Positions 12,072 through 55,000 of a DNA stretch of 55,000 bases are shown here, piece by piece. The translations under genes and the position numbers were made by a program. Every line of letters starts with the position of its first letter. The stretch's first letter is position 1. The stretch is from assembly GCF_902148845.1 (NCBI RefSeq), contig NC_043762.1, positions 28,907,760-28,962,759 on the forward strand, given 5' to 3'. Below the pieces are notes generated by a model. The model did not search any database. It saw nothing but the letters and a program-made list of their open reading frames with translations, and was not told the origin of the DNA. The stretch comes from Salarias fasciatus (taxonomy: Eukaryota).

Positions 12072-12857
<786 letters not shown>

Positions 12858-35813: not shown

Positions 35814-35884
35814 CTGATAAAAGAAAACAACTTAAATATTTCTGTATATTTTAAAAGCTTTAACTTGCGTTTGTCTGTGAGTAC

Positions 35885-36885: not shown

Positions 36886-36936
36886 CTTCGGGGCGGACTT
36901 GAAGTGTAACCCCTTCATCACTCCCTTCAGACCGCC
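36886..36936 (-). CDS. Array-1 microexon 10, basic (GGLKGVMKGLHFKSAPK)
   Basis: Acceptor tgtgatcggcag| (weak polypyrimidine tract), donor AAG|gtatga. 51 nt. Confidence 0.35.
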
Positions 36937-37116
36937 CTGCCGATCACAGTATCATCTCACAGTCTGCTTGACAACAGAGGCACACACACCTGAACACACA
37001 CATTCACACAGGGCTGGGCAGACGGGCTTCAGCGACCTTTAACCTGGATTCTGATGTCTCGTATCCCATGAGAATCTATGAGGAACAATGTGGTGTCCAG
37101 CGTTTTGGTGCCTGAT

Positions 37117-37154
<38 letters not shown>

Positions 37155-37174
37155 CCAGTCGAACCCACACATAC

Positions 37175-37249
37175 CGGTTTGCTGCCGGCAGCCTGTTTGA
37201 CTTGGACCTGGTCTGGACTCCCCTCGTCGGCGTTCGGACTCAGGTAGTT
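37175..37249 (-). CDS. Array-1 microexon 9 (NYLSPNADEGSPDQVQVKQAAGSKP)
   Basis: Acceptor gtcctctgcag|, donor CCG|gtatgt. 75 nt. A (CA)n repeat lies just downstream in the intron. Confidence 0.4.
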
Positions 37250-37974
37250 CTGCAGAGGACAAACAGCAGCTGTTGACCCTCAGAGTTCGGCAGAAAGCCT
37301 CAAACTCAGCGAGAGTCAGTGATTCCTCTACGTCTCAGCTCAGGAGATCTTCATTTACTCTCCAAGTTACCGAGACGACTGAGTCAGGAACGGCAGCTTC
37401 AACCTGCTGACACACTCCTACTGCATGGCTTTGTGCATGATCGTTCACACCCACACACACACACACACACACACAAACTCATCTGAAACCAGTTCAGCAG
37501 AGACAACAACAGATCTTCTCTGTATTTAAACATCGTTTCCACACAGAGAGACGTCCTGGTGTTCCGTCTTCTTCTCATTTCAGGAAACGCCCGTCTGGAC
37601 TTCTGGATGGAGAAACTCATCGTTTCACTACTTTGATGCTTCCTCTGAACGTTCATTTTTAAAGTAGAAGTCTGAAATTAGCATCAGACCTTCTGAAATC
37701 CTTTTACACTCCTAATGAACGGTGGTTATTGTTCAGGAAGATGGACATCAAACTAAATTTGCATGAAACAAATGACGCTCAGCTCAGAATCCAAAAGCAG
37801 AGCTGAAAACTGACTCGGTCATACAGAGAGTTTCGTCCAGTCTATTCAAGGCCCCGTTTACACGACAACATCACAAGTGGAAACGCATCAGACCTTTCGT
37901 TTGACAGCAGAAATACTGGAAGCGTCTGAGAGCCTTTCTCAGGCTGTGGAACTTTCAGGTTGTGCTTTTCTTAC

Positions 37975-38040
37975 TGTGAACGTAGGAACTTTCCCTTTTT
38001 GGCTCCGCTGAAACATCCCAGCCACTCCTCGCTGATTACT
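37975..38040 (-). CDS. Array-1 microexon 8, type B variant (SNQRGVAGMFQRSQKGKVPTFT)
   Basis: Acceptor gtgtgatattgcag|, donor ACA|gtaaga. 66 nt. Confidence 0.45.
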
Positions 38041-38133
38041 CTGCAATATCACACCAGAAAACAAAGCACGGCGTTGTCTGTAATCCAGAAAGACGAGGTC
38101 AGAACTGGGGGCTGAAGGCTGAAGGAGGAATAC

Positions 38134-38181
38134 CGATTTGAGGTCTGCTTCGTCTCGGGGATCCTCTGCTTGAGCCGATTT
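38134..38181 (-). CDS. Array-1 microexon 7, acidic (KSAQAEDPRDEADLKS)
   Basis: Acceptor tctctcttctctctcag|, donor TCG|gtattc. 48 nt. Confidence 0.45.
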
Positions 38182-38235
38182 CTGAGAGAGAAGAGAGAGA
38201 AACTGAGCAACTGGTGAAGAGAAGCTGTTTTCTAA

Positions 38236-38240
<5 letters not shown>

Positions 38241-38283
<43 letters not shown>
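38241..38283 (+). repeat. (TG)n microsatellite in the array-1 intron
   Basis: gtgtgtgt run. Confidence 0.95.
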
Positions 38284-38285
<2 letters not shown>

Positions 38286-38345
38286 CTGTGTGCCCTCGAC
38301 CTCGGCCCTCCTGAGCTGCCTGGAGACAGTGGTTGAGCTCATTTC
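38286..38345 (-). CDS. Array-1 microexon 6 (EMSSTTVSRQLRRAEVEGTQ)
   Basis: Acceptor gtgttttgtgcag|, donor CAG|gtacac. 60 nt. A (TG)n repeat lies in the downstream intron. Confidence 0.4.
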
Positions 38346-38518
38346 CTGCACAAAACACACAAAGGAACCAAAAAGAAAAGAAACATCAAGCGGCGCTCTC
38401 ACGTTCAGCTCTAAAATCCATATGAATCTGATTAATGACGATTTTTAAAACAATAAAAGAAAAGCATGTGTTGGATCTCACGTATATCTAAATAGAGACC
38501 GTCTTGGGGGGCGTCTAC

Positions 38519-38581
38519 CTTTTCGGTGGGCCTGGGAGGAATCACTGGAGTTGCAGGCAGCTTCACGTTTCCATTTGCTTG
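38519..38581 (-). CDS. Array-1 microexon 5, Pro-rich (QANGNVKLPATPVIPPRPTEK)
   Basis: Acceptor attttgtag|, donor AAG|gtagac. 63 nt. Confidence 0.4.
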
Positions 38582-38852
38582 CTACAAAATAATTCAGAAT
38601 CAAGGTTAGCATGACTAACCTAATAGGTCGTACTGTCATTCACAAAAAACACTTTTAGCTTTACATTCAACATTATTTTTCAATAGATGTTCCTCAAAAC
38701 ACCAGAACCCCTCTGTAACTGACAGTTCTGACACCTTCAGACAGTTTACTGGAACTTCTCACACGAAAAGCTTGAACTCAGAATCCACTGTAACCGTTTG
38801 TTCATTAAAGGAAACCGTCAGAAACAGACAGAAATAAAGGATTCAGTGACAC

Positions 38853-38906
38853 CTCATCGAAGACGGCGGCCAGTTGTTTCACTCTGTACTGTGTGTGAAC
38901 CAGCTC
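38853..38906 (-). CDS. Array-1 microexon 4 (ELVHTQYRVKQLAAVFDE)
   Basis: Acceptor gtgttttctgtgcag|, donor GAG|gtgtca. 54 nt. Confidence 0.4.
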
Positions 38907-39199
38907 CTGCACAGAAAACACACAAGAAGAGCTGACATGTTATTTTTCTCCAGTAAAACCCGTTTATAACGGCGCTGGCACCGTCTCCTTTTGGAACAAC
39001 ACCGAACGGACGCGTCACAGAAAACTGCCTGAATCCCTGTAAACTAAAAAAAAACTAAACTCTGATCAAATCAACAGGTTTGGTGCAGCGTTGTGTTGTA
39101 GTGGTGAGACGATTGAGAAGCTCATAAACAGGAGGTCTCTGCTGAATCTCTTATGGCCAGGCTGCTGTCGGCACTCAGGCTCGTTTGCGGTGGACTCAC

Positions 39200-39268
39200 G
39201 GCGTCTGTCGGCCGCGGCGGCGGCGCTGGAGCTGGTTTCTCAGGTCTCTCCGCCTCGTATCGTCCAAT
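39200..39268 (-). CDS. Array-1 microexon 3, Pro-rich (IGRYEAERPEKPAPAPPPRPTDA)
   Basis: Acceptor ctgtgtttacag|, donor GCC|gtgagt. 69 nt. Confidence 0.4.
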
Positions 39269-39353
39269 CTGTAAACACAGTTCCGTCATCTCTCCAACAT
39301 CCTGAAGCCAGGGGTTGAAACCGACCGGTCGACCTCAGGACTGATACTCTACC

Positions 39354-39380
39354 TCTGGAGGCTTCGGCGGCGCCGTCCTC
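39354..39380 (-). CDS. Array-1 microexon 2, 27 nt (RTAPPKPPE)
   Basis: Acceptor ctcctctctcctcgtcacag|, donor GAG|gtagag. 27 nt. Confidence 0.35.
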
Positions 39381-39677
39381 TGTGACGAGGAGAGAGGAGA
39401 AAACACGGCGTGAGAACGGCACGGCGGGTTCTCCATCCGATCATACTCGGTTCATCAGAATCCAAATGAAGAGTAATGGCAGTGAGAGCTCCACAGAAAC
39501 ATCCGATCAGTCTGAACACGTTGAAATGTTTGCTTTGATTTCCAGGATGTGAAAATCAATGAAACAGGATGTGAGTCCTCGGTTGTGTGTTTTCAGGTTT
39601 TCCAGCGGTGAGATGGAACCATCACACACTGCACATGCAGCGTCAGATCAGTGCATGCACGAAATGTGGCAGTTTTA

Positions 39678-39678
<1 letters not shown>

Positions 39679-39748
<70 letters not shown>
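39679..39748 (+). repeat. (TG)n microsatellite, about 35 units
   Basis: gtgtgt run. Confidence 0.95.
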
Positions 39749-39755
<7 letters not shown>

Positions 39756-39763
39756 ATTCTCAC

Positions 39764-39817
39764 CGGCCTGGGTTTGGGCTTCTTCTTGGCCTCAGGTTTC
39801 ACCATGCAGGCCTCCAT
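39764..39817 (-). CDS. Array-1 first coding exon with a Kozak-context ATG (MEACMVKPEAKKKPKPRP)
   Basis: gcaggATGG at 39817. Frame open to donor CCG|gtgaga. Stop codons in the other two frames. A (TG)35 repeat lies in the intron immediately downstream. Confidence 0.4.
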
Positions 39818-42625: not shown

Positions 42626-45246
42626 CATGTGGTCGTCTTTGTTTCATCTGTGTTTTTCCCCTGCTTACAACATCACTCTTTGTTTCAAAAATATTATTTA
42701 CTGCAGAAGCACAAGCATCTTTATCTTTTTCCATTTTGAACTTGCAGTCTTCAATTTTTCATAAAAAGTTCTATGAAACTGTAATGCAGACATGGAGTAA
42801 AAGATAAAGGATTAATGCAATAATATAATGTATTATAATTAAGAAGCATGCTAGAAATCTACACTTTATAAAGATATAACTTAATTTCTGTATAGAAAAT
42901 GGAATTTCTTTTAAATAGCATGGACTTTGGGAGTTAAAGAGCAGAATGAGGGGGAAACCAGAAGAAACCTCTTTAATTATGAGAATGCAATAATATATAA
43001 ACTCAAACTCATTTCAGTCTGGGACAGCTGCTGATGCAGGTCCACTTCCCTTGTCAGGTTCCTGTGACCTTTATCTCTACCTGGCTTTCACCTGCGTCCA
43101 CATTAGGTAACACAGATTTCCCACACCACGTGAAGGCAGCGTCGCTTCACCAGTGGAACAAAGCATCTTAAACAGGAAAACACGCCCAGACAGCTCCTGA
43201 GCCCCGGATCCTCCCAACAAAACCTGTTACATGATCAGGAGAGTCACCGCACCAACAAAGACGGAAAGCCAGTCCACGGCTCACCTCGACTCACAGCAGA
43301 AGATGGGGGGAAGGACAGGAGCTGCCAGCCTTTGTCTCTCTCCAGCCTTCTGTGGACTCACCTGGGAGAGGGCGTGGCCAGTGTGAGGGTTACCTGAGAG
43401 ACTGACTCACCAGTTTCACAAGAATCATGTGAATACTTCTGAAACATGACGAGGGTTGCTCCAAAAATAGAAATAAAAAACCCTCAGTCATCCAGACAGA
43501 AACCGTCAGTGACTGGAGTGAGTCACGGTGGATTTTCAGATCACACATCATTTTAATTTGATCACACATCATTTTAATCAATCAGTGAGTCAATCAATCT
43601 TCTGTTCATCTCTGCTTTATTCTGTTCAGGGTCACAGAGCGCTGGAGGTGAAGGCAGAGCATCATGTCTGTGCATCATTCCAAGCTTCATGAATAAATCA
43701 CTGTAGTTTCACTGGAAACCTTTAAAGTCTCTAAACTAGACACGAAGGCCTCGATCCAGACCAGACAGCTCAGCTGTACCTGGATCCTGAAAGATTTACA
43801 TTTTTTAGCCACAACATGTAATCAAGATGCGGAATTTAAAATTTAAATTGAGTATATGATTTCATATAATGACTCTTTGTGGGTCTTTACTGGCAGATCT
43901 CCATTCCTTAAATACGTTTTTTTTAATTGACTTTTAACTCTTCAAATTGTGCCTGTGGTATTTTTTAGACTTGATCAGCACTCTGGGTTATTTGAAAACA
44001 AGACCAAAAAAAAATCTTCAGCCGAGAAGAAGACTCAATTCTGCTTAGAATAACTGGATTGATCAAACCGCAACTTCAATATTTAAAACAGAACTATACT
44101 TTCTGAACTTAATCTGACCTTTCTAAACTCTGCAACTTTTGAAACCTAAACATGGACAATTTAGTTTCAGGCCATTAGAGGTACATGTGGACTCCTCAAA
44201 CTGAACCAGACACTGTAAACAGACCTCATGCTTGTAAAACAATAAATCTAATCTATCTTTCATCAGAACCCCATAAACCAGAGCTTTTCTTAAAGTTAAT
44301 ATGCAAATCTGAAATAAAAAATCTCTGTGTTCTCCCCAGTCTGTAGAATAAAAGCTCTATAGCTGTCACATAATCTTAATGTGAACCTTGTCATTTTTGA
44401 TCCCAGCCTTGCTTTTCCTCTCCTCCGCTGCCGTTTCTTCTCCCCTGACTGCAGAGCTGGAGGTGTGGTCGACACACAGCTGACTTGCAGCCTCGTCGCC
44501 AGGAGAACGTTTTCTTGTTGCTGCTTTGTTTGTTCGGCCTTTTTGTGTGTTTATGAATTAACCGTACGTCACATCTACGAAACGACACGAGTGACGACAG
44601 AGCAGTGAAAAAAATAAATCAACAAGCCTGAAGAGATGCTGCTTTTCGACGGGTACACACTCGAGGAGACATCCCTCACCTGCTTATCTCAGAGTGCCGG
44701 AATGAGAGCAAACAGCGGTGAAGTCCATGCAGACTGGCCGAGTCAATACCGGCTCACTTCAGCGCACGGTGCGAGTGTTTACACATCCGCAGGTAGCAAA
44801 TGAAAACAGACGGGAGGTGATGCTAAGGCCTTTAATCTCACATTTACATTCAATTCTCTGAAACTTTTCATAGTATTGCACATAAAAAGGAATCAGTGAA
44901 TAAACACGTCCGCCCTGAACGGAGGAAAATAAATAAAAATGACGTATTCTGACTACAGCGGGGAGCACAAGTGACATGTGGAAGAACAACAGCAGTGTCA
45001 ACAGGAGTAAACATGATAAAGAAAAGAAAATCAGCAGAGACCAGCAGCGCCGCTCAGCTCTGACTGGTTTACTGAGGCCGTCTAATTCTGCATCTGGAGA
45101 GCATTAAAACATTCCAGCCGAGAGAAAACGGGAGGCGAATGAGGAAACACGGCGAGGCGTCACGAAGGGCTCGAGGCGTTATGAATATAAAGGCACTAAG
45201 CGGCCTCTGCGTTCCCATCAGGCCACAGTGTTTCAGTGTCTCAGGC

Positions 45247-46219
45247 TCAGACGTACTCCCTGTTCTCATACTCCTTCTTGATGGCCTTCTTGATGCGGTC
45301 GATCTCGTCCTCGCTGGAGCTGTCGCGGTGGTCGTGGTCGTCTTTCTCCTTCTTCTCCTCCTCCTGGTTGGCGTTCCCGGCCGGAGCGTCCTCGGCCCTG
45401 CCCTCCGGCGTGGTGGACTGCAGCTCCTCCCGGATGGTGTTCAGCTCCACCAGGCCGTCGTGCAGCTGCGTCGCCACCTCCCGGATTTTGGCGGCAAACT
45501 CCGACTTGGCGCCTTTCTTGAGGATTTTGGAATCCTTGGCCACGAAGTAGATGTCCATGCCCACGAAGAGTCCGGTGAGCACGCCGGTGGCCATGCTGGC
45601 GATCTGCACCGCCCTGGCCGCCGTGCTGCCCGCCACGTTGGCGATCTGCACCACGCGCATGATCTCGTTGGCGTTGATGAGGATGGCCTTGCCCGCCATG
45701 GCGCCGTCCTCGTAGAAGCTGCTGGTGAGCGCGGGGAAGTCCTGGTTGTAGGCGTGGTTCTTCATCTTCATCAGGTCGAAGCGCCGCAGGTTCTCGATGC
45801 CTTGCTTGATGAACTTCAGGCACTTGTTGAGGTCGGCGATCTTCTCCTGGTAGTCCTCCACGATCTTCTCCACCTTCTTGCGGTCCATGGAGTTGTTGAC
45901 CTGGTTGGAGATGCCGGCGCCCGCCGACGTCAGGCCGCCCGCCGTGGCGATGCCCAGCCCCACCGCCGTCACGATGAGGGAGGTTCCCATGGTGACGGGC
46001 GCCAGGGCCAGGCCGGTGATGGTGGCCACGCCCCCGATGGCGCTGGTGGACCCCCCGGTGATCTGGGCGATCTTGGTGTTCTTGTTGAACTTGTCGAGTC
46101 CGTCTGCGATGGCGTTGAGGTCGATGACGTGCTGCCACAGCGACTCGGCGCGCTCCGAGAACAGCTTGTTGAAGACGCGGATGCCTTTCTGCACCTTGTC
46201 CGCCGTGACGGCGAAGGCC
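45247..46219 (-). CDS. APOL-B terminal coding exon: complete APOL domain without an intron (...AFAVTADKVQKGIRVFNKLFSERAESLWQHVIDLNAIADGLDKFNKNTKIAQITGGSTSAIGGVATITGLALAPVTMGTSLIVTAVGLGIATAGGLTSAGAGISNQVNNSMDRKKVEKIVEDYQEKIADLNKCLKFIKQGIENLRRFDLMKMKNHAYNQDFPALTSSFYEDGAMAGKAILINANEIMRVVQIANVAGSTAARAVQIASMATGVLTGLFVGMDIYFVAKDSKILKKGAKSEFAAKIREVATQLHDGLVELNTIREELQSTTPEGRAEDAPAGNANQEEEKKEKDDHDHRDSSSEDEIDRIKKAIKKEYENREYV stop)
   Basis: Acceptor cctcttcctcgcag| (phase 2). Hallmark APOL membrane-hairpin and GAKSExAxxxxExAxxL motifs. Stop TGA at 45247-45249. Confidence 0.8.
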
Positions 46220-46372
46220 CTGCGAGGAAGAGGCCGGGGTCAGCACACTGAGACGGTTCTGATGCTTCACATTTCTACCCTCCACTGCAGCGATGAGGCG
46301 CATTTCAGACGAGAACCAAACACACTCCTCAACTGACCTTAAATCATGACGTATGAAGTGCGGTTCACTTAC

Positions 46373-46424
46373 TTAGCTTCCTCTTTTTCCGTCAGGTCTT
46401 CATCCTCTGGCCGGTCCTCCCATG
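46373..46424 (-). CDS. APOL-B coding exon (PWEDRPEDEDLTEKEEA)
   Basis: Acceptor cctttgtcag|, donor AA|gtaagt. 52 nt, phase 1 in and phase 2 out. Same size and phase as the APOL-A 52-nt exon. Confidence 0.55.
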
Positions 46425-46796
46425 CTGACAAAGGAAACGAGGGATTTTATTTTGAAACACTGCATAAACTGATGGGTGAAAACTATGTGGACACATCACA
46501 CAACAGGTTTATTAATCTGCCTCTGAAAGTTGTGACACTAATCCGTACTAATCCATACGACTGCAGAAGCATTTTATCTTCAGGCTTAATTTTCTCATCT
46601 TGCTGCAATCACTGTTTGTTATTATGATGTAAAACAGTTTATCTTATATTACTGTATGGATGCTGAGTAGCAGACGCAGTAGTGATCCTGTTTCTTTACT
46701 ATATATTTTTTTTTAATAAGAAATGCCACATTAGGATATATTGTTTAGAAATATTCAAATTCAAACCATAATTAACTCAATTAATCCGATACTTAC

Positions 46797-46836
46797 GCTC
46801 CACAGTGTTCCACCAGTCCATGAGATCCTCAGCATC
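46797..46836 (-). CDS. APOL-B coding exon (DAEDLMDWWNTVE)
   Basis: Acceptor gtgtttcag|, donor C|gtaagt. 40 nt. Paralogous to APOL-A ENNELMEWWKSVK. Confidence 0.55.
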
Positions 46837-46896
46837 CTGAAACACACCATCAGATTTGTACGTTTCTGTTCCTTTGTTGAATTGAATCAGTGGACT

Positions 46897-46898
46897 AC

Positions 46899-46957
<59 letters not shown>

Positions 46958-46960
46958 CCC
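46897..46960 (+). repeat. (AT)n followed by a poly-T/poly-C tract in the APOL-B intron
   Basis: atatatat...tttttttttttttttttttcccc. Confidence 0.9.
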
Positions 46961-46985
46961 AAAACGATCTGCTGTAAAGACCAAC

Positions 46986-47069
46986 CTGCGTGTCCTGGGG
47001 GGTTTCAGGGTTTCCAGGGTCACGATATTCCTCCAGCTGGTCGAACAAGGATCTGTTTGCCCCTTCGCT
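46986..47069 (-). CDS. APOL-B coding exon (SEGANRSLFDQLEEYRDPGNPETPQDTQ)
   Basis: Acceptor gttgtctcag|, donor CAG|gttggt. 84 nt, phase 0. No ATG in the exon, and an in-frame stop lies just upstream of the acceptor, so this is an internal exon. Confidence 0.5.
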
Positions 47070-47379
47070 CTGAGACAACACAAGTCATCCATCTTTAGAA
47101 TTCAATAAAAACAACTGGATGAACAGTTTTTCAGTGGTGTGTGTGGGAAAAAGTAAAATCAACCAAATCTGTCGTCACGTTTCAGTTGTAAGTGTTTTTT
47201 CGCTCCACTTTTTCTGGTTTATACTCAGATAAATAGGGGGAAGTTGGAGCAGGAGCCAGTCCGGCTGTGTTGATGTCTTTCTGCTGTTTTTTGCAGAAGT
47301 AAAAGAGACCACAGCGTTGCAGGGAGCACATTCAAAAGGGAAGCAGAGAAACAAGTCCGGGCACATTGCAGCCTAATCT

Positions 47380-47660
47380 CAGCTCATCTTCCACGGCGAA
47401 GGCCGAGCAGGAGCCCCGGCCGGCGGGGCGGGGCGGGGCGGGCGCGGTGGGGTTCGTGTCGGCAGGGGAAAGGAAACAAACGCAAAAACAAGAAACACAT
47501 GTTGGCGAGGGCGAGAGAGAGAGAGAGCGGGGCCGGACGGCCTCCAGACAAACTCTGTCGATGACTGGGAGAATGTGGGCGGAGCAGCACGGGTCAGGTG
47601 ACCGAGACGGAGCTTCGGCAACAAACAACCACAACAAGCACAGACTCAGTCGGCCTGGGA
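47380..47660 (-). promoter_or_regulatory. GC/CpG-rich block (GGGGCGGGGCGGGGCGGGCGCGG GC boxes) between array-2 and the APOL-B exons: candidate internal or alternative promoter
   Basis: High CpG density. Sp1-like GC boxes at 47415-47445. GAGA tract at 47505-47530. Confidence 0.3.
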
Positions 47661-47737
47661 AACACGCCGACACCAAGGGCTGGCTTGAGTTTACATAATC
47701 ACAGCAGAAACGCCGTCACGGCTGTTTCCTTTATTAC

Positions 47738-47785
47738 CTCTTCGTTCCCTGCAGCGCCGTGCTTCGTCCTCTGCATGACTTTACC
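47738..47785 (-). CDS. APOL-B exon with the first in-frame ATG (GKV-MQRTKHGAAGNEE). ATG around 47776
   Basis: Acceptor ctgctttcag|GGTAAAGTCATG; donor GAG|gtaata. 48 nt, phase 0. Confidence 0.4.
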
Positions 47786-47920
47786 CTGAAAGCAGTGAAC
47801 ACAACACACACAGTTAAAGCCCTGATAACACTGGTCTCTGGTTTTCAGCTGTATCTGTAACACAACTCAGTCATCTGCTCATAAACCGGACCGGACTCTG
47901 CTACAGAAACACACACAAGG

Positions 47921-47999
47921 AAATAACACAGCAAGACGGGAAATTATATCACACACAAGTCATTTCAGAGACGTATACGTCTCTATAATTTCCCGTCTT
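47921..47999. repeat. Nested perfect palindrome: 17-bp inverted repeats (caagacgggaaattata ... tataatttcccgtcttg) flanking an inner 16-bp palindrome (gagacgtatacgtctc)
   Basis: Read directly from the sequence. Predicts an extended hairpin of about 79 nt. Confidence 0.8.
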
Positions 48000-48621
48000 G
48001 CGGACAGAGCAAGGATTTCAGCATAATGCCATGTCAGTGGAAATTAATTCCACATAAGCAGTTTCATAATAACAAAGAGCTGTAGTCAGGAAATCATCGT
48101 GATTTGGAAGAAATTAAGTGTAAGACTGCCTGAAAAGTTGTAAAAATGCTTTGAACGGACTCTTAAGTAGTTATTGATGCATATCTCTTTTAAAACTGAT
48201 TCAGGGATTCAAACCCCAAACTCAAGGAGAACACTTGACTCGATGTGTCTGGTTAATTCTGTCATTATATAATGACAGTGTGTTTCTTACGGATTGTTTC
48301 TTACATAGTGATAATCTTACCATCATTATAAAGGTAAATGTATAATAAGAGTATAATTCAGTGATAATGTTAATCTATAATAATCCAGATCAATACATCC
48401 AGTGACAGATAAAGTTAACCACATCCATAAGAAGATGGCGTCTCCTGGATTTAGTTCCACTGATTTCATAATGATTTAAGAGAGAATAAATGGAACCGTT
48501 AACAGCTGGTTGAAAGAGAGCCGCTCCAGCAGAGAGAACATGTTCTTGTCATGTTGTTTGTTGTAATGGAGGGTATTTCAGCGGCGCAGAGAAAGGCAGG
48601 TCTGAGCAGGTCACATGTTAC

Positions 48622-48672
48622 CTTGACGCGAGGCATGAAGGGGTTGTGCTTCTTGTATTTCTTGACTTTGGG
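48622..48672 (-). CDS. Array-2 microexon 23, basic NPF (PKVKKYKKHNPFMPRVK)
   Basis: Acceptor tctctttctag|, donor AAG|gtaaca. 51 nt. Confidence 0.5.
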
Positions 48673-48824
48673 CTAGAAAGAGAGATCGACATCAATACAC
48701 CGCTCCCTGGAGGAGGTGGTTCAGGTTCACACACTCTCTGCTGCTTTTCAGTCAGAAACCGTGGTTCTGTTCAGAAACTTTCGTTCATTCAACAGACACG
48801 AGGAACAGGACTGATCAGAAGGAC

Positions 48825-48917
48825 CTTTGGTGTTTTCTCCTGGCCTTCCTCTTCTTTCTTTTCCTCTTTTGATGAAGACTCATCCTCATCTTTCAGGCCT
48901 TCATCGTCAGAGGCAGC
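48825..48917 (-). CDS. Array-2 microexon 22, acidic (AASDDEGLKDEDESSSKEEKKEEEGQEKTPK)
   Basis: Acceptor tctgtgttttcag|, donor AAG|gtcctt (weak). 93 nt. Confidence 0.4.
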
Positions 48918-49013
48918 CTGAAAACACAGAGTCACCATGACAGTGAAATAAAGAAACGATAACGTGTTTCATTTGGACGGCCGTGTCTGTCAGAACTTAG
49001 CGGGCGTTCTTTA

Positions 49014-49061
49014 CCTTGTCTGCAGAACGCGGCATGAAAGGATTCGGCTTCTTGTGTTTCT
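49014..49061 (-). CDS. Array-2 microexon 21, basic NPF (KKHKKPNPFMPRSADK)
   Basis: Acceptor ccccacag|, donor AAG|gtaaag. 48 nt. Confidence 0.5.
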
Positions 49062-49624
49062 TCTGTGGGGAGAATTTGGCACAATCGCAAAGCGTTACGT
49101 GACACGAAGAGCAACAACTGGAAGAGCAGCATTTTATTCCAGGCGTTGGTGATTTGTCTTTAAACGGAGGAACAGTATCGGGGCTTCAGCAGTCACAGAA
49201 AACGGTCATCAGCCACTTCCCCAGAAACAGAAAACACTCTCCGATAAGCACAAAACGCACTGTTTCCACTGACATTTGACTGTTTTATATACATATATTA
49301 AAGGAAGTTTTTCTCTGTGATTGTATCTGCAGGTGTCAGGTGTCTTTTGCATGTTCACGCCATGAAATAACCGATAAGGAGGAAGCAGGAACTAGAAAAG
49401 TTAGATCCTGGCAGAGGAGCTTTCCTCTGCCTGCTGCAGTCGGGCAGAGGTCAGAGCATTAAACAAACAAAACAAAAACAAGTTCAGTGTTCTCAAAAAC
49501 ACACAGAAATAAATACAAACAGATGATCTTAATTAATTTATCAAAAGAATGGCAAAATTGCTTTTTATGCATTTAGGAAAATACATGTTAAGTTCTACCT
49601 ATCCTGCCTGATCATCATGACGAA

Positions 49625-49714
49625 GCGTACTTACTGCTGTGTTCTCTGGAATGTTCATCTCTTCACCGTTTTCAGCAGCAGCAGCAGACTCGTCTCCCTC
49701 AGTGCCTTCATCCC
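49625..49714 (-). CDS. Array-2 microexon 20, acidic (NQSGDEGTEGDESAAAAENGEEMNIPENTA)
   Basis: Acceptor catgtgccgcag|, donor GCA|gtaagt. 90 nt. Confidence 0.45.
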
Positions 49715-49866
49715 CGGACTGGTTCTGCGGCACATGGAGCTGATCAGTTCATTATTTTCGTCTCATAGGAAAGAAAAACACACTAATGCTTGATATTTGA
49801 AAGCTAATACTCTCCACTGACATTCTATATTATCTTAACTTGTATTCTGTGCACATGGAAACATAC

Positions 49867-49920
49867 CTGGTGTCTGGTTCTCTGCTTCTGTAGATCACGA
49901 GTTCTCGTTCTGCTCATCTC
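49867..49920 (-). CDS. Array-2 microexon 19, basic (EMSRTRTRDLQKQRTRHQ)
   Basis: Acceptor ggttttatttcag|, donor CAG|gtatgt. 54 nt. Confidence 0.45.
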
Positions 49921-50000
49921 CTGAAATAAAACCACAGATGGTATTTAAACGACCGTGGTCTACAGCAGACCTTCCAGATCCAGAGGCCGAAATAAACCAC

Positions 50001-50081
50001 CTGCTCAGACGGTCTGGCTGGGATTTCAGGAGTCTCCTCAGGACTTTCTTGTCTCTGTCGGGGGATCACGTCTTTGCTTTC
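50001..50081 (-). CDS. Array-2 microexon 18 (ESKDVIPRQRQESPEETPEIPARPSEQ)
   Basis: Acceptor cattttctgtag|, donor CAG|gtggtt. 81 nt. Confidence 0.4.
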
Positions 50082-50185
50082 CTACAGAAAATGAAAGTAA
50101 ATCCATGTGACGAAGCCTGTTTCATGTCGGCAAAGCTCGACTTCACAAAATCAACTCTGTGAACAAAGGCAGCTGAGAAGGGTAC

Positions 50186-50245
50186 CTTATCGTACTGAGG
50201 TCGTCTTGATTTGTCTCTGTCGTCTGCGGACGTCCTCTTCATCTC
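50186..50245 (-). CDS. Array-2 microexon 17 (EMKRTSADDRDKSRRPQYDK)
   Basis: Acceptor ccgtgttccag|, donor AAG|gtaccc. 60 nt. Confidence 0.45.
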
Positions 50246-50324
50246 CTGGAACACGGCGAAACAGAGTCAGACCGAGCAGAATCCACCAGGGACTCAGGAG
50301 GACCAGATCTGACTGCAGGCTAAC

Positions 50325-50402
50325 CTTCTCTGCTGGTCTGGGAGGGACCCAAGACGCTCCACGTCTGTCCGGGTTCTCTGGCTGGCTCGTGTTGCTCTTG
50401 AC
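50325..50402 (-). CDS. Array-2 microexon 16 (VKSNTSQPENPDRRGASWVPPRPAEK)
   Basis: Acceptor cttgtcag|, donor AAG|gttagc. 78 nt. Flanked by (CA)n and (TG)n microsatellites in the introns. Confidence 0.4.
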
Positions 50403-50410
50403 CTGACAAG

Positions 50411-50451
<41 letters not shown>

Positions 50452-50525
50452 AAACGAAGAAAGTCAGTCAGTGTACTGGAGCAGGCTGGAGGTAAGGAGG
50501 ATGTGGTGAAGATACAGCTAATCAG

Positions 50526-50528
<3 letters not shown>

Positions 50529-50577
<49 letters not shown>
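50529..50577 (+). repeat. (TG)n microsatellite in the array-2 intron
   Basis: tgtgtgtg run. A (CA)n run at 50411-50452 lies nearby. Confidence 0.95.
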
Positions 50578-50615
50578 TCGCGGGTGACTCAGAGGGATGC
50601 AGTAAATAGACTCAC

Positions 50616-50681
50616 CGGCTTTGGCTTCTCTTTCACTTGTTGCTCGCTGTCCTTGAGGCTCTCTCCGTCCTCCGTCTCTTT
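50616..50681 (-). CDS. Array-2 microexon 15, acidic (KETEDGESLKDSEQQVKEKPKP)
   Basis: Acceptor tcctttattcag|, donor CCG|gtgagt. 66 nt. Confidence 0.45.
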
Positions 50682-51024
50682 CTGAATAAAGGACAGGAAT
50701 TCCTTTTTAAATTGCATCGATCAAAATAGACCTCTTTAATAACATCTATTAAAAAACACGTCATTGGAAAGACTACTGGAGTTCCTGAATGCGGCTCCCT
50801 TCTTCTTCCCATGTCATTAACTCTAAATAAATCTGTATGGTACAATAATCATATTGAGAAGTGAGAAAAAAAAAAGAACACTTTGCAACACAGCAGTCAC
50901 CCACACTGGTGAAATGGTTAGTAGACGTGTGACAACGACTCAAAGCCTGATCACATGCAGCCGAACCACGACCCCCACGACCCCCACCACCACCACCACC
51001 CGACACGTCTGACACCATATTTAC

Positions 51025-51078
51025 TTTATTGGCAGAACGGAAAGGGTTCAGTTTGGACATGGCTCCGGCCACGGCGCT
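51025..51078 (-). CDS. Array-2 microexon 14, NPF (SAVAGAMSKLNPFRSANK)
   Basis: Acceptor tgttcctttcag|, donor AAA|gtaaat. 54 nt. Confidence 0.5.
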
Positions 51079-51526
51079 CTGAAAGGAACACACACCCGCA
51101 CAGCGTTCAGGTGGATTTCAGAACATTTCAGTCCGTCCTCGGTCGGAGAGCCACACACCGACCCAGCGATGAATTAAATCATGGAGCGGTGACCATGAAA
51201 ACACAGCGCTAATGTCATCCAACAGCAGACTAACAAAACATCGCTCATCTCCTCAGCAGGTAAATATTTAGGAAGGTTGTTTATTGCAAAAAATGTCGTT
51301 TATTTCAGAACATGAGAGCTTGGTTTATTCAAGATCTTCATGTTTTTTGACATATTTTGTGATTTTTTTTTTTAATGATTTTATAAACTATTGACTGGAT
51401 CAATAGAACTCAGAAGGTGTTTTGTGTATTAAAAGTGATTTCAGAATACAAACGGAGTCTTCAGCACAAAGAGAATTGGCTGAATGTCAAACTGAGTGAA
51501 ACAGGAAGTAGGGACTCTGGAAGCAC

Positions 51527-51595
51527 CTGTTTGTGAGCCGATGGTTTCTCGCTGGCAGCTGGATCCTCCTCGTCTGAGCTCATCTGCTTCTCATG
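51527..51595 (-). CDS. Array-2 microexon 13, acidic (HEKQMSSDEEDPAASEKPSAHKQ)
   Basis: Acceptor gttttcttggcag|, donor CAG|gtgctt. 69 nt. Confidence 0.45.
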
Positions 51596-51723
51596 CTGCC
51601 AAGAAAACACAGAACACAGAAACTCTTCATCAAAAGCACATAAATTCAGCTTTTAAAGTCATTTTACGGAAGCTGCAGTCTGTCCTCCACTAGAGTCAGC
51701 CAGCAGGAAGCGCAGCAGCTTAC

Positions 51724-51777
51724 TTTGTGGACGCCTCGAAAGGGATTGAGCTTGGTCATGGCTCCTGCCAGCTTGTT
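51724..51777 (-). CDS. Array-2 microexon 12, NPF (NKLAGAMTKLNPFRGVHK)
   Basis: Acceptor cccgactcag|, donor AAA|gtaagc. 54 nt. Paralogous to microexon 14. Confidence 0.5.
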
Positions 51778-51861
51778 CTGAGTCGGGACGAAAGAGGAAC
51801 AAAACATTAACCAACAGCAGTATCAATGACATCTCTAAACTACGAGACATTAAATAGGAAC

Positions 51862-51927
51862 CTGTTTAGGACCAGTCTGGTTGTCTTCGCTGTCTGATGC
51901 CTCCTCGTCAGAGTTCGGGCTCTTTTC
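51862..51927 (-). CDS. Array-2 microexon 11, acidic (EKSPNSDEEASDSEDNQTGPKQ)
   Basis: Acceptor ccttcctctgcag|, donor CAG|gttcct. 66 nt. Confidence 0.45.
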
Positions 51928-51998
51928 CTGCAGAGGAAGGACACTTTACGTAAATACAGAACAAAATAAACGGAATTTGGCTGTATTTCACCTCTCAC

Positions 51999-52046
51999 CT
52001 TCTTGTCGGTGTGAAATGTACTCTTCATCATGGCAGTGAACCCAAA
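51999..52046 (-). CDS. Array-2 microexon 10 (FGFTAMMKSTFHTDKK)
   Basis: Acceptor gtcttgttccag|, donor AAG|gtgaga. 48 nt. Confidence 0.45.
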
Positions 52047-52126
52047 CTGGAACAAGACGAAGATGATCACGTTAAAAATAAAAATAAAAACACGACGAAT
52101 AAAAGTTACTTTGTTATCAAAACCAA

Positions 52127-52180
52127 CCTGCTTAGTTTTGGGCTTCTCTGCAGTGGCGTCCTCTGAGTTTTCACTCTTCT
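52127..52180 (-). CDS. Array-2 microexon 9, acidic (EKSENSEDATAEKPKTKQ)
   Basis: Acceptor ctttcctcag|, donor CAG|gttggt. 54 nt. Confidence 0.45.
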
Positions 52181-52260
52181 CCTGAGGAAAGACAAATGAA
52201 CACATGGTCAATATATCCGCTCCTGAAAAGCACATCGGAGGAAACGAGCTTGACCCCTGA

Positions 52261-52326
52261 CCTTTGACGGCTTCTCCGTGTGACCTTTACCCTCTGCGGA
52301 CGGTTCTGCGTCCATGGACAAGTCGT
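52261..52326 (-). CDS. Array-2 microexon 8, acidic (DDLSMDAEPSAEGKGHTEKPSK)
   Basis: Acceptor tctccctgtaaag|, donor AAG|gtcagg. 66 nt. Confidence 0.4.
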
Positions 52327-53359
52327 CCTTTACAGGGAGAAACAGCAAAAAGTCACAAAATGAACGAGGAAAAGAGCTTCCAGAAAAAATAACCATTTTC
52401 AGAGGAAGCAAAAACGATCACATTCAAGAGCAGAATGAAAGAATCGTCCTGAAGCAGATCTGAGGCGAGATGTGCAACGAGACACACGACAAAACTGTCG
52501 CTAATAAAACTAACATGTTTAGATCAACCGTCTTATTCTGTGGCAATAACACAGATTATAATTAAACTTGTATCATAGTTATAAGTTACAAACTAAACAC
52601 AGAACTAATGTTAATTAAAACTGTTAAGATTGAAAGGATGTATTTAGAAACTGGAGGTTCAGCATCGCTAATATAACTTGATCACTCTTGAATCTGTAAA
52701 CCTCTGCTGCTTCAGGGCGGAGAATTATTATCGTCACATGATTTGAGCCGTAACTGAGGTTTTGCTAATAACAACAACAACAACAACAACAACAATAATA
52801 GTAACTCTCTGAAGAGGGTAAAGTCTGTTTCCTAAGAGTCTCCCATTGCTCTGAACTCCACTCCAACATTTCGCTCTCATGAATGAAAACCTGCTGAAAG
52901 TAGAAAAGTGAAGTAAAAGCTGTGCTGAAGGAGTTAAATCAGACACGGAGAGAGAAACAAACTGCTTCAGACCAGTGAGCTGTGTCACTGTCCGACTGAA
53001 CCGGGCAGGATGCCGAGCCTTTAGATCTCAGCTGATAGTTTAAAGACGGGAGTCACTGCCGTCACATCCAGAATGTCGTCTCTGTGTAAAACATTCAAGC
53101 CGTCAGCGATAAGAAGACCTTTGTATGTCTGAGTGTTCTGTTACTTTCCAACGCCTCACATGACAATGCGTCACAATTTGTTTGACCACACCTAAACACA
53201 AAGCCAACACACCCACGACCGTACAGATACGATTTGTATCTGAACAGCGTCGAACCAGCACCGGCGTCCAAAAAATAAAAAGATCTCTGTTCTTTAAGGG
53301 CTGCATTCATTTCACTGTAGCTTTTTCACCATATTTAAAAGTAGTTCCTTCAGACGTAC

Positions 53360-53419
53360 CTGAGACTGAGACCTGGCAGCCTTCTTTCTGAACACCCCAC
53401 TGAAGAGCCCTCCTTTCTC
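53360..53419 (-). CDS. Array-2 microexon 7, type B (EKGGLFSGVFRKKAARSQSQ)
   Basis: Acceptor tgtgttctcag|, donor CAG|gtacgt. 60 nt. Confidence 0.55.
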
Positions 53420-53508
53420 CTGAGAACACAGGAAACCTGCTGCTGTCACGACCTCGTTCACAGCTGAGGCTGGAGGCTGGATGGAGCTACAGCAAAGATC
53501 AGACTCAC

Positions 53509-53574
53509 CTTCGACGGGTTCTCGTCCAGGTTTTCGCTGCTGCCGGAGAGCTTGCCGTCTGCAGACAAATCCTC
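53509..53574 (-). CDS. Array-2 microexon 6, type A (EDLSADGKLSGSSENLDENPSK)
   Basis: Acceptor ctcgtctgcag|, donor AAG|gtgagt. 66 nt. Confidence 0.55.
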
Positions 53575-53664
53575 CTGCAGACGAGAATCGAGCCAGGATA
53601 ACCGATCAGAGCGGATATAAACAGAGGCAGACGGCGATACGGCGGCGGCGGCGTCAGTACATGC

Positions 53665-53727
53665 CTGAGACTGCGTCCTGTGCTTGTGGCCCTTTTTAAA
53701 CATCCCAGAGAACATCCCTCCCGACTC
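53665..53727 (-). CDS. Array-2 microexon 5, type B (ESGGMFSGMFKKGHKHRTQSQ), with a non-canonical GC donor
   Basis: Acceptor tggcccagcag|. The donor position reads CAG|gcatgt where sister exons have CAG|gt(a/g)xgt. 63 nt. Confidence 0.4.
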
Positions 53728-53815
53728 CTGCTGGGCCACAAGTCACATTAAACACCGGCCGAGAGCAGAACAGGAACAGCGACGACCGAAAGACTTCACA
53801 TCTCTGCGGATGTAC

Positions 53816-53884
53816 CTTAGCGTTGCTGTTGACAGCCAGGCCGTCGCTGCTGCCGGAGAGCTCGCCGTCTGCAGACAGGTCGTC
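53816..53884 (-). CDS. Array-2 microexon 4, type A (DDLSADGELSGSSDGLAVNSNAK)
   Basis: Acceptor gtggcctccag|, donor AAG|gtacat. 69 nt. Confidence 0.55.
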
Positions 53885-53968
53885 CTGGAGGCCACAAACA
53901 GGCTCAAACACGTCAACATGCAGGGAAACACGGCGAGATGAGAAATCAGCAGCGCGCTAAACACACAC

Positions 53969-54040
53969 CTGAGACTGTGTCCTCACTCCTAAACGCTTTG
54001 GTGGCTTCTTGAAGAGTCCGCTGAACACCCCGCCCGACTC
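53969..54040 (-). CDS. Array-2 microexon 3, type B (ESGGVFSGLFKKPPKRLGVRTQSQ)
   Basis: Acceptor tggactccag|, donor CAG|gtgtgt. 72 nt. Confidence 0.55.
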
Positions 54041-54159
54041 CTGGAGTCCAGACACAACCAAAACAAAACCGTCATTCAGGAAGCTTCCTCCGTGGTGGAG
54101 GATCACAGAGAACGTTTCCATCCTGCAGCAACACCAGTAAAAGCTTCTACAGAGCTCAC

Positions 54160-54216
54160 CTTCGCGTTGAGGTTGTCAGCGCTGCCGGAAAGCTCGCTGG
54201 GAGCAGATAAATCCTC
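54160..54216 (-). CDS. Array-2 microexon 2, type A (EDLSAPSELSGSADNLNAK)
   Basis: Acceptor ttgttgttttccag|, donor AAG|gtgagc. 57 nt. Confidence 0.55.
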
Positions 54217-54312
54217 CTGGAAAACAACAAAACAGGTTTTTAAATTCGACCGTTTGAAAACAGAAAGTCAGATCATTTTAAAGAAAAGAAAAGAGACGGA
54301 AGAGACGGATAC

Positions 54313-54384
54313 CTGAGACTGAGCCTGGGCTGCAGAGAGCTTCGGAGACTTTTTAAACATCCCACTGAACACGCCTCCAGATTC
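54313..54384 (-). CDS. Array-2 microexon 1 as seen (type B: ESGGVFSGMFKKSPKLSAAQAQSQ). The array probably continues upstream, beyond the window
   Basis: Acceptor tttgatctgcag|, donor CAG|gtatcc. 72 nt. Confidence 0.55.
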
Positions 54385-54540
54385 CTGCAGATCAAAATAA
54401 CTTTACGTCCACATCAGAAATCAAAGTCCGTTTTCTGAAAGTTCTCAAAACTACGTCTTTTTTAAAAACTAGTGATGCAGAAGCCAGATGGACGGACGGC
54501 CACGGTGTGTTCCAAACAACAGACTGCAGTTTAATCAAAC

Positions 54541-54557
54541 TGCTGATGTGTGCACGT

Positions 54558-54588
<31 letters not shown>

Positions 54589-54589
54589 G

Positions 54590-54621
<32 letters not shown>

Positions 54622-54640
54622 CACACACACACAAAAGTGT
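54541..54640 (+). repeat. Compound (TC)n/(CA)n microsatellite
   Basis: tctctctctcacacacacacacacacagacacacacacacac... Confidence 0.95.
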
Positions 54641-54921
54641 CAATTGAAACACTGAGCCGCTGCCTCCACAGCTACTGTCGGTCACATCCTGCAGACACAT
54701 TTCCACCATGAAACACACACTTCACATAAGATTTCCATTACATTTAACCATTTAAATATTTTTTATTGCAATATTTGCATTAATATTTACAAGTAAACGC
54801 ATTGAATAATGAAAATCATTGCTCATGTAGTTCAGTTTCCACGGCATTTTTTCCATCTTACAGGTACTGAGATATTTAAATGTTTTCATGTGCAATATAA
54901 ATGTCATTACTGGTTAATAAT

Positions 54922-54927
<6 letters not shown>

Positions 54928-54998
<71 letters not shown>

Positions 54999-55000
54999 TA
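54928..55000 (+). repeat. (AAT)n microsatellite running to the window edge
   Basis: aataataataat... Confidence 0.95.

Follow-up and report, generated by a model that had tools for sequence, protein, structure and literature searches.

The 55,000-nucleotide stretch of Salarias fasciatus DNA analysed here (NCBI RefSeq assembly GCF_902148845.1, contig NC_043762.1, positions 28,907,760 to 28,962,759; hereafter the window, with position 1 at its first letter) carries two ApoL-domain genes on its minus strand. Positions 55000-45247 hold the 3' four-fifths of one protein-coding gene, 'apolipoprotein L1' of S. fasciatus, called gene B in the following. Gene A (39817-26414), a hand-built model of 49 exons and 1661 amino acids (aa), lies 5 kb downstream of it. 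A sequence-only reading of the window had described the gene B region as an array of at least 23 phase-0 microexons preceding an APOL gene, 'APOL-B', and had regarded the two regions as a tandem duplication of a whole array-plus-APOL module. For gene B the minus strand between 45 and 55 kb was read and scanned for open segments bounded by AG and GT, then an explicit exon list was assembled. The gene B exons inside the window are numbered w1-w28 in 5' to 3' direction on the minus strand (charges are net charges of the encoded residues; the sign ^ marks an exon boundary):

54313-54384, minus strand: w1, ESGGVFSGMFKKSPKLSAAQAQSQ, 72 nt, phase 0-0, basic G-type, charge +2, the first exon inside the window, identical to XP_029971357.1
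54160-54216, minus strand: w2, EDLSAPSELSGSADNLNAK, 57 nt, acidic S-type, charge -3
53969-54040, minus strand: w3, ESGGVFSGLFKKPPKRLGVRTQSQ, 72 nt, G-type, charge +4
53816-53884, minus strand: w4, DDLSADGELSGSSDGLAVNSNAK, 69 nt, S-type, charge -4
53665-53727, minus strand: w5, ESGGMFSGMFKKGHKHRTQSQ, 63 nt, G-type, charge +3, non-canonical GC donor
53509-53574, minus strand: w6, EDLSADGKLSGSSENLDENPSK, 66 nt, S-type, charge -4
53360-53419, minus strand: w7, EKGGLFSGVFRKKAARSQSQ, 60 nt, G-type, charge +4
52262-52327, minus strand: w8, DDLSMDAEPSAEGKGHTEKPSK, 66 nt, acidic, charge -3, preceded by a 1032-nt intron
52128-52181, minus strand: w9, EKSENSEDATAEKPKTKQ, 54 nt, charge -1
51999-52046, minus strand: w10, FGFTAMMKSTFHTDKK, 48 nt, hydrophobic/basic, charge +2
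51862-51927, minus strand: w11, EKSPNSDEEASDSEDNQTGPKQ, 66 nt, acidic and Ser-rich, charge -5, followed by the intron retained in contig L001 (see below)
51724-51777, minus strand: w12, NKLAGAMTKLNPFRGVHK, 54 nt, basic with an NPF motif, charge +4; N390-P391-F392-R393 at least 90% conserved
51527-51595, minus strand: w13, HEKQMSSDEEDPAASEKPSAHKQ, 69 nt, acidic, charge -3
51025-51078, minus strand: w14, SAVAGAMSKLNPFRSANK, 54 nt, basic with an NPF motif, charge +3, annotated cassette exon
50616-50681, minus strand: w15, KETEDGESLKDSEQQVKEKPKP, 66 nt, charge -2
50325-50402, minus strand: w16, VKSNTSQPENPDRRGASWVPPRPAEK, 78 nt, charge +2, first half of a PPRPxEK^EM motif shared with gene A exons 5/6
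50186-50245, minus strand: w17, EMKRTSADDRDKSRRPQYDK, 60 nt, charge +2
50001-50081, minus strand: w18, ESKDVIPRQRQESPEETPEIPARPSEQ, 81 nt, charge -3, second copy of the P(A/P)RPxE(K/Q)^EM pair
49867-49920, minus strand: w19, EMSRTRTRDLQKQRTRHQ, 54 nt, charge +4
49635-49724, minus strand: w20, NQSGDEGTEGDESAAAAENGEEMNIPENTA, 90 nt, strongly acidic, charge -9
49015-49062, minus strand: w21, KKHKKPNPFMPRSADK, 48 nt, basic with an NPF motif, charge +5
48825-48917, minus strand: w22, AASDDEGLKDEDESSSKEEKKEEEGQEKTPK, 93 nt, acidic, charge -7
48622-48672, minus strand: w23, PKVKKYKKHNPFMPRVK, 51 nt, basic with an NPF motif, charge +7, the last array exon
47786-48621, minus strand: intron 23, 836 nt, 38% GC, no polyadenylation hexamer and no terminal exon
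47738-47785, minus strand: w24, the 'ATG exon' of the sequence-only reading, GKVMQRTKHGAAGNEE, 48 nt, phase 0-0, internal linker exon
46986-47069, minus strand: w25, SEGANRSLFDQLEEYRDPGNPETPQDTQ, 84 nt, phase 0-0
46797-46836, minus strand: w26, DAEDLMDWWNTVE, 40 nt, phase 0 to 1, matching gene A exon 46 in both respects; W697 and W698 invariant
46373-46424, minus strand: w27, PWEDRPEDEDLTEKEEA(K), 52 nt, phase 1 to 2, matching gene A exon 47 in both respects
45247-46219, minus strand: w28, last coding exon, 973 nt with the stop codon included; ApoL domain (Pfam PF05461) with the hydrophobic hairpin STSAIGGVATITGLALAPVTMGTSLIVTAVGLGIATAGGLTSAGAGI
44872-45246, minus strand: presumed minimum extent of the gene B 3' untranslated region; the 3' end of contig L001 aligns to 45129-44872

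The array of gene B consists of exactly 23 short exons (48-93 nt, 54384-48622). Number and coordinates had been given correctly before, whereas the term microexon was a loose one. A microexon is 27 nt or shorter, in laxer usage 51 nt or shorter; three of the 23 exons do not exceed 51 nt, and none is as short as 27 nt. All 23 have a length divisible by 3, are open in frame 0 and have phase 0-0. Since w24 and w25 are likewise phase 0-0, 25 symmetric exons follow each other in succession, for which the chance under random phase is about 1e-12. Each array exon has an AG acceptor with a pyrimidine-rich tract before it, and 22 of them have a GT donor. The sole exception is w5, whose donor at 53664 is GC (cag^gcatgt); the GC site is also the RefSeq choice, as seen from the junction QSQ^EDLSADGK in the protein. 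An alternative GT donor lies 24 nt downstream of it, which would preserve the frame and add ACTDAAAA. The exons of gene B have a GC content of 54%, the introns 43%. The alternation of two exon types that had been proposed for the seven 5'-most exons (54384-53360) was found, with ESGG/EKGGxFSGxFKK exons (G-type) alternating with D/E-DLSAxxELSGSSxxL exons (S-type). The most highly conserved array exon is w23, with a mean identity of 75% and presence in 28 of 29 orthologues. A tandem-repeat scan of 44-55 kb returned intronic microsatellites only, and an Rfam scan of the whole window matched no RNA family.

The conceptual product of w1-w28 (895 aa) was compared with 5.8 billion proteins in a homology search. 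The top match (P0001) was XP_029971357.1, 'apolipoprotein L1 isoform X2 [Salarias fasciatus]' of 1043 aa, with 100% identity over 100% of the hand model; array and 'APOL-B' are therefore one annotated gene. Gene B is thus already known, with existing public models in RefSeq and Ensembl/UniProt. Of its three RefSeq isoforms (XP_029971356/57/58, 1026-1044 aa) all contain the w23-w24 junction. The RefSeq protein has 148 additional N-terminal residues (MDRYDDLDLDLECEE...AIFGGMFKK...), in which the same alternation continues, in agreement with the earlier view that the array runs off the window edge; the exon immediately upstream of w1 is not within 55000-54300. Over the full query, identities of 52-80% were obtained with more than 100 teleost orthologues (about 900-1200 aa), which range from eels to relatives of pufferfish, share the layout of gene B and all contain PF05461.

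The sequence around the junction was as described in the sequence-only reading. The last array exon ends in phase 0 with ...NPFMPRVK^gtaaca, and the next exon begins with ctgctttcag^GGTAAAGTCATG...; the ATG of w24 is at 47776, and the stop codon of gene B ends at 45247. The intervening 0.8 kb (intron 23) is AT-rich, its GC content being 38% in comparison with 47% in the whole window, and contains no AATAAA, no ATTAAA and no plausible terminal exon. Read-through from w23 into the intron would meet a stop after about 40 codons. The equivalent of w24 directly follows NPFMPRVK in 28 of 29 aligned orthologues. Its methionine (GKVMQRT), however, is found in only 2 of 30 aligned orthologues, with V, I, K and other residues elsewhere. 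Judged by this alignment, w24 is therefore an internal linker exon and its Met is not a start codon, so that the in-frame joining of array and APOL exon proposed earlier stands, but the idea of an ATG exon does not.

These observations also bear on the alternative that the region consists of two transcription units, namely an array-only gene ending before 47.8 kb and a separate APOL-B gene starting at the ATG of w24 (47785-47738), or, in a weaker form, that an internal promoter in intron 23 adds an APOL-only isoform. The ATG is indeed present in S. fasciatus, some catfish and characin orthologues or isoforms have merely 442-690 aa, and the zebrafish 'apol1' of the literature is a short model (NP_001025309.1) in a 2.6-kb locus, chr2:37,674,122-37,676,731 in Zv9 (PMC4492502). 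Against two units stand the rarity of the Met among the orthologues, the lack of a polyadenylation signal or terminal exon in intron 23, the open frame across the w23/w24 junction, and the joining of w23 to w24, seen in all three isoforms of RefSeq, in more than 100 orthologues and in two contigs of transcript origin. We regard the two-unit explanation as very improbable.

The two contigs, L001 (3926 bp, SRR28040515) and L002 (4159 bp, SRR27393481), were found among the Logan assemblies. They are too short to accommodate the introns, and both cross the array-to-APOL junction. L001 was collinear with the window exon by exon from w1 to w28, and the introns were absent from it except intron 11. 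Two exons, w16 (50402-50325) and the linker w24, did not align to L001; they are too diverged for blastn, yet lie inside the continuous open reading frame (ORF) of P0010. Positions 2194-2250 of L001 correspond to w23 and positions 2298-2385 to w25, and the intervening 47 nt to w24. Across the junction the encoded proteins read ...NPFMPRVKGKLIQRTVQGASENAENEGANRSLFDQLEEY... (P0010) and ...NPFMPRVKGKGLQRKTQDD...NRSLFDQLEDF... (P0091). Because all but one of about 27 introns are missing, L001 and L002 were taken as RNA-derived. The 84-nt intron 11 (window 51861-51778; about 1385-1450 in L001) is retained with an in-frame stop that splits the ORF of the contig; it could represent an unspliced pre-mRNA fragment or regulated retention.

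No evidence contradicting the single-gene model was found. Of the two findings that had been named beforehand as speaking against the sequence-only reading, a transcript ending before 47.8 kb and the lack of arrays beside APOL genes in other assemblies, neither occurs. Array and APOL exons are parts of one gene, not two associated units.

The symmetry of the array exons has a direct consequence for splicing: since all of them are symmetric, any one can be skipped without frameshift. Isoform X3 (XP_029971358.1) lacks precisely w14 (51078-51025, SAVAGAMSKLNPFRSANK), and apart from this the three S. fasciatus isoforms differ only in one Gln, whose codon lies outside the window. Isoform pairs in eight other species had no mismatches, and their indels (for example 141, 91, 48 and 43 aa, in computational isoforms) were whole exons or whole G/S, NPF/acidic or PxRP/EM units. 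Together with the 25 consecutive lengths divisible by 3, the annotated w14 skip and the whole-unit indels are what is expected of symmetric cassette exons.

The tail of about 650 aa at the N-terminal side of the protein is encoded by the 23 array exons inside the window and, for about 148 aa, upstream of it. Each exon corresponds to one charge block, either basic and aromatic (E[KS]GGxFSGxFKK, or K-rich with NPF) or acidic and Ser-rich (D/E-LSxxxELSGSS[DE]NL, SDDEGLKDED), and the sign of the charge alternates along the entire array, beyond the first seven exons. The tail contains 13% K, 13% S, 11% E and 14% hydrophobic residues, with a mean hydropathy of -1.47. All four NPF motifs are in basic exons (w12, w14, w21 and w23), the first of them, NPF(R), being the one conserved in at least 90% of the sequences. 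A Pfam scan of both arrays alone at E <= 10 returned nothing meaningful, the best match being Mdv1 with E = 8.6. An AlphaFold2 model computed from a 30-orthologue alignment, which was used solely as support for disorder, had no secondary structure in residues 1-660 (predicted local distance difference test, pLDDT, 31-44) and was helical in residues 669-1040 (pLDDT 50-66). The array-encoded tail is thus predicted to be disordered.

The conserved W-W motif and the ApoL domain are encoded by the four exons downstream of the linker exon. The ApoL profile PF05461 was matched with 126.6 bits (cut-off 25.9, E = 1.7e-36) by model residues 578-832, which cover profile positions 43-297 of 298. The hairpin STSAIGGVATITGLALAPVTMGTSLIVTAVGLGIATAGGLTSAGAGI (model residues 629-675) reaches up to 1.81 in a 19-residue Kyte-Doolittle window and contains no D or E. 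A helical hairpin with the potential to span a membrane is the hallmark of APOLs, APOLD1 included, and hairpins free of acidic residues have been predicted and argued to insert at neutral pH (Pays, PMC11726835). Gene B is predicted to have this double-stranded hydrophobic hairpin by hydropathy, although it is not helical in the AlphaFold2 model. The first 700 aa of the protein, which starts with MDRYDDLDLDLECEEG..., contain no hydrophobic segment (15-residue hydropathy maximum 0.35) and therefore no signal peptide; by hydropathy gene B differs in this from a secreted protein of the APOL1 type.

Gene A comprises the following parts:

28820-39817, minus strand: gene A exons 1-45, all phase 0-0, 27-105 nt; orthologues named apold1a
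26414-28727, minus strand: gene A exons 46-49, with a 40-nt and a 52-nt exon, an ApoL domain interrupted by an additional intron, and a long C-terminal tail of low complexity that includes (EPRP)n

Its G/S array consists of exons 16-41 (35406-29553), and G-type exons are present before it as well (8, 12 and 14), there in alternation with acidic exons of other kinds. Orthologues of gene A have 1100-1740 aa and are named 'apold1a' or 'si:rp71-1g18.13'. Among the 5.8 billion proteins no S. fasciatus protein for gene A was found, the best match being 58% identical and from Larimichthys, in contrast to the three RefSeq isoforms of gene B; gene A may be missing from the S. fasciatus annotation or be mis-modelled in it. 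About 13 tandem EPRP copies (gagcccagaccg), followed by Gly-, Glu- and Arg/Ser-rich low-complexity runs, are present in its C-terminal tail (27200-27050 and 26950-26480, minus strand).

Genes A and B are a tandem paralogue pair: they are adjacent, on the same strand, and have homologous domains and shared intron positions and phases. The pair of 40-nt and 52-nt exons with phases 0 to 1 to 2 is common to both. Their ApoL regions align over 304 aa with 42% identity and a single gap, their arrays with about 32% identity. In a DNA dot-plot of 45-55 kb against 26-40 kb the ApoL exon alone aligned (about 70%); the other matches were CA/GT microsatellites or exon fragments of 23-33 nt. Consecutive locus tags for A and B were found in eel (ANANG_G00169490/480), tarpon (MATL_G00251840/830), turbot (F2P81_000285/286) and O. 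javanicus (OJAV_G00166160/150). In burbot, P0216 (Lota lota CAL8278845.1, 1337 aa) joins a B-type array and linker exons to an A-type ApoL domain and tail. It was treated not as a natural fusion but as a probably chimeric gene model across the tandem pair, and was used solely for adjacency; as it fuses the B array to the A domain, it implies the same gene order and strand in burbot.

The adjacency, common strand and common architecture of the two units could raise the suspicion that the second is an artefact of the assembly, or else a very recent segmental copy of the first, with concerted evolution possibly maintaining the similarity. This is at odds with the dot-plot, in which only the ApoL exon DNA could be aligned, with the 42% identity of the domain proteins, and with the separate A and B orthologue sets that occur within the same species under adjacent locus tags. 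Recent duplication and concerted evolution, the latter raised in the sequence-only reading, were rejected on these grounds, and we give the artefact or recent-copy explanation practically no credence. Taking into account the 42% ApoL identity, the lack of DNA similarity between the two genes in introns and array exons, and the presence of both genes in Elopomorpha (eels, tarpon), these comparisons indicate that the A/B tandem duplication is ancient, that it preceded the teleost radiation, and that it is neither recent, nor concerted, nor an assembly artefact.

The proposed tandem duplication of the complete module held for the same-strand paralogue pair with its shared plan, but the arrays differ in content and order. 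Both arrays contain the G and S exon types, with boundaries that coincide, and in both a PPRPxEK^EM motif is interrupted by an intron at an identical position. In A this exon pair lies on the N-terminal side of the G/S array, in B on its C-terminal side; NPF exons are confined to the B array, and the signatures of the G exons are gene-specific (ESGG...RTQSQ in B, EKGG...KPAE in A). The arrays may therefore not have been duplicated whole: an ancestor with one or a few G/S exon pairs could have been duplicated, and the two arrays could then have expanded independently by duplication of exon pairs. This would account for the unlike motif order and the gene-specific G signatures, for the absence of DNA similarity between A and B array exons as compared with 76-85% identity among some exons within B, and for the unit numbers, which vary from one close species or isoform to another. 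In gar, paddlefish, bichir and a caecilian the closest relatives have only 286-417 aa, with at most a short N-terminal extension. On the other hand, both long forms are already present in Elopomorpha and Clupeiformes, the short non-teleost models are possibly incomplete annotations, and the two exon types, their phase-0 boundaries and the intron-split PPRPxEK^EM motif are alike in both genes, so that at least those elements predate the duplication. We consider independent expansion a serious possibility, to which we give somewhat less than even weight.

A few other features were noted in the window. On the plus strand an ORF at 12105-12803, which extends to about 14.5 kb, resembles the initial coding exon of what we take to be an hnRNP C/RALY-type RRM protein. 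On the minus strand an ORF at 18727-19032 with ...NGTDLAVELSGRSAGYIAMGLTANASQ... is reminiscent of an exon of a DOMON-domain protein. Transposon-like ORFs lie at about 21.3-22.3 kb and include, at 21.6-22.1 kb, a (GPA)n/(LLA)n repeat; the intergenic region between genes B and A contains a tRNA-derived element similar to short interspersed nuclear elements at 40.4-40.8 kb (ggccacacggtggtgcagtggttagcgc...).

Among known systems the closest are the teleost 'apol1' or 'apolipoprotein L, 1' models of RefSeq and Ensembl, of which gene B is the S. fasciatus member and whose names its orthologues bear. Most of these orthologues exceed 10 kb in length and have products of about 1000 aa; otophysan (catfish, characin) orthologues and isoforms have 442-1011 aa. 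Zebrafish apol1, the model used for APOL1 nephropathy, is described as a short protein from its 2.6-kb locus, and in the papers on it no N-terminal array like that of gene B is mentioned (PMC4492502, PMC4854397). A homology search seeded with a catfish orthologue matched catfishes, characins and knifefish but no Danio orthologue of gene B. Danio LOC560271 (382-409 aa, 43% identity), obtained by cluster look-up, was considered and set aside as some other member of the family. The zebrafish model may be 5'-truncated, or the array may be shortened in otophysans.

Human APOLD1 is a short protein of 279 aa, and the human APOL cluster adjoins MYH9. APOLD1 (VERGE) is an ApoL-domain protein of the endothelium, located at cell junctions and in Weibel-Palade bodies, and has in common with gene B the ApoL domain, an acid-free hydrophobic hairpin and the absence of a signal peptide (PMC9973481; PMC11726835). 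Unlike gene B, it has no repetitive N-terminal region. The link between the fish genes and APOLD1 is by database names alone, 'apold1a' for the gene A orthologues and 'apolipoprotein L domain containing 1b' for a gar relative of B; the other recognisable genes of the window, the hnRNP C-like gene and the DOMON-like ORF, gave no support for synteny with human APOLD1. Human APOL1-6 share Pfam PF05461 with gene B, but human APOL1 is, unlike gene B, secreted and forms a pH-gated pore with acidic residues in the hairpin (PMC7891394, PMC8557400). None of the six human proteins has an array-encoded disordered extension, and gene B is in tandem with a gene of the apold1a type.

A third teleost family, of the si:cabz01007807.1 or 'apold1b' type (P0250, P0241, P0223, P0235), resembles gene B in having a repetitive N-terminus (700-1450 aa in total) followed by LMEWWNTVEQWD and a C-terminal ApoL domain. 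Its repeats (K/SxDIFQ, DLFQ, DPF, NPF) are unlike the G/S charge blocks of genes A and B and look like endocytic-adaptor motifs. In members of this type (P0250, P0241, P0223, P0267, P0284) an N-terminus of 600-1100 aa is followed by a conserved 'VFEDILLIGQEKCVEDWPEDSP' box, and the proteins end with the LMEWWNTVEQWD and ApoL module.

Treacle (TCOF1) and NOLC1 are nucleolar proteins without a membrane domain, in which one repeat per exon provides alternating acidic Ser-rich and basic blocks. Gene B is like them in having one block per exon, in charge alternation and in disorder, but there is no sequence homology and the likeness is compositional only. The automatic (Gnomon) names of several gene B orthologues are 'nucleolar protein dao-5-like' and 'nucleolar and coiled-body phosphoprotein 1-like'. 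The micro-exon genes of Schistosoma have exons of 6-36 nt and encode secreted proteins with signal peptides. They share with gene B long runs of symmetric exons and combinatorial skipping, whereas the exons of gene B have 48-93 nt and its product lacks a signal peptide.

These features suggest how the protein might work. The C-terminal ApoL domain would anchor it in an intracellular membrane through the hairpin, and the disordered tail would serve as a multivalent platform. The basic-aromatic GxFSGMFKK blocks might bind acidic lipids in the manner of the MARCKS effector domain, the four NPF motifs could recruit EH-domain proteins of endocytic and recycling traffic, and the acidic Ser blocks would be phosphorylation sites of the casein kinase type, phosphorylation counteracting binding. 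Valency would be set by exon skipping and by gain or loss of exon pairs. The comparisons with the MARCKS effector domain, NPF/EH-domain binding and CK2 sites come from general motif biology. Such a mechanism would agree with what has been proposed for APOLs and APOLD1, namely roles in membrane remodelling and trafficking (PMC11726835, PMC9973481).

Several points weigh against this picture. L001 and L002 derive from species other than S. fasciatus, L001 probably from a related blenny, the S. fasciatus RefSeq isoforms are computational (Gnomon) models, and a shorter APOL-only isoform may arise from an internal promoter. The AlphaFold2 model is of low confidence (mean pLDDT 41.6), with the hairpin modelled as coil. 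The functional mechanism of gene B is one that we infer throughout, the MARCKS, EH-domain and CK2 analogies being based on short motifs. With these points taken into account, we are still highly confident of the explanation as a whole, that is, a single APOL gene with an array-encoded disordered tail on an ApoL domain and a putative splice-tuned multivalent mode of action.

The locus is thus a correctly annotated RefSeq gene, and the reconstruction made from the sequence-only reading reproduces that model. Its descriptive value lies in the disordered extensions of 500-1000 residues on teleost ApoL-domain genes, built from symmetric, charge-alternating exons with NPF motifs, which are undiscussed in the searchable literature. 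No paper there mentions apold1a or si:rp71-1g18.13; the study of APOL evolution was on primates and mouse only and traced APOLD1 no further than chicken and amniotes (PMC8557400), and in the review on membrane remodelling by APOLs the word 'fish' is absent (PMC11726835).

A broader and speculative idea, which we think rather unlikely as it stands, is that in at least three paralogous lineages of teleost genes of the APOL(D1) type the exon arrays would act as a combinatorial 'valency dial': each symmetric exon would add to a hairpin-anchored disordered tail either a basic-aromatic block that binds lipids or EH domains or an acidic phospho-block, and tissue-specific skipping would tune its engagement with membranes and trafficking. 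As a corollary, fish apol1, including the zebrafish disease-model gene, would be an APOLD1-like paralogue with a full product about three times the length studied. That fish 'apol1' is really APOLD1-like and that the zebrafish gene is 5'-truncated are leads, not results. If zebrafish apol1 were structured like gene B, the morpholino and CRISPR work on nephropathy would have hit only the C-terminal third of a far larger protein, and that protein may be nearer to APOLD1 than to APOL1.

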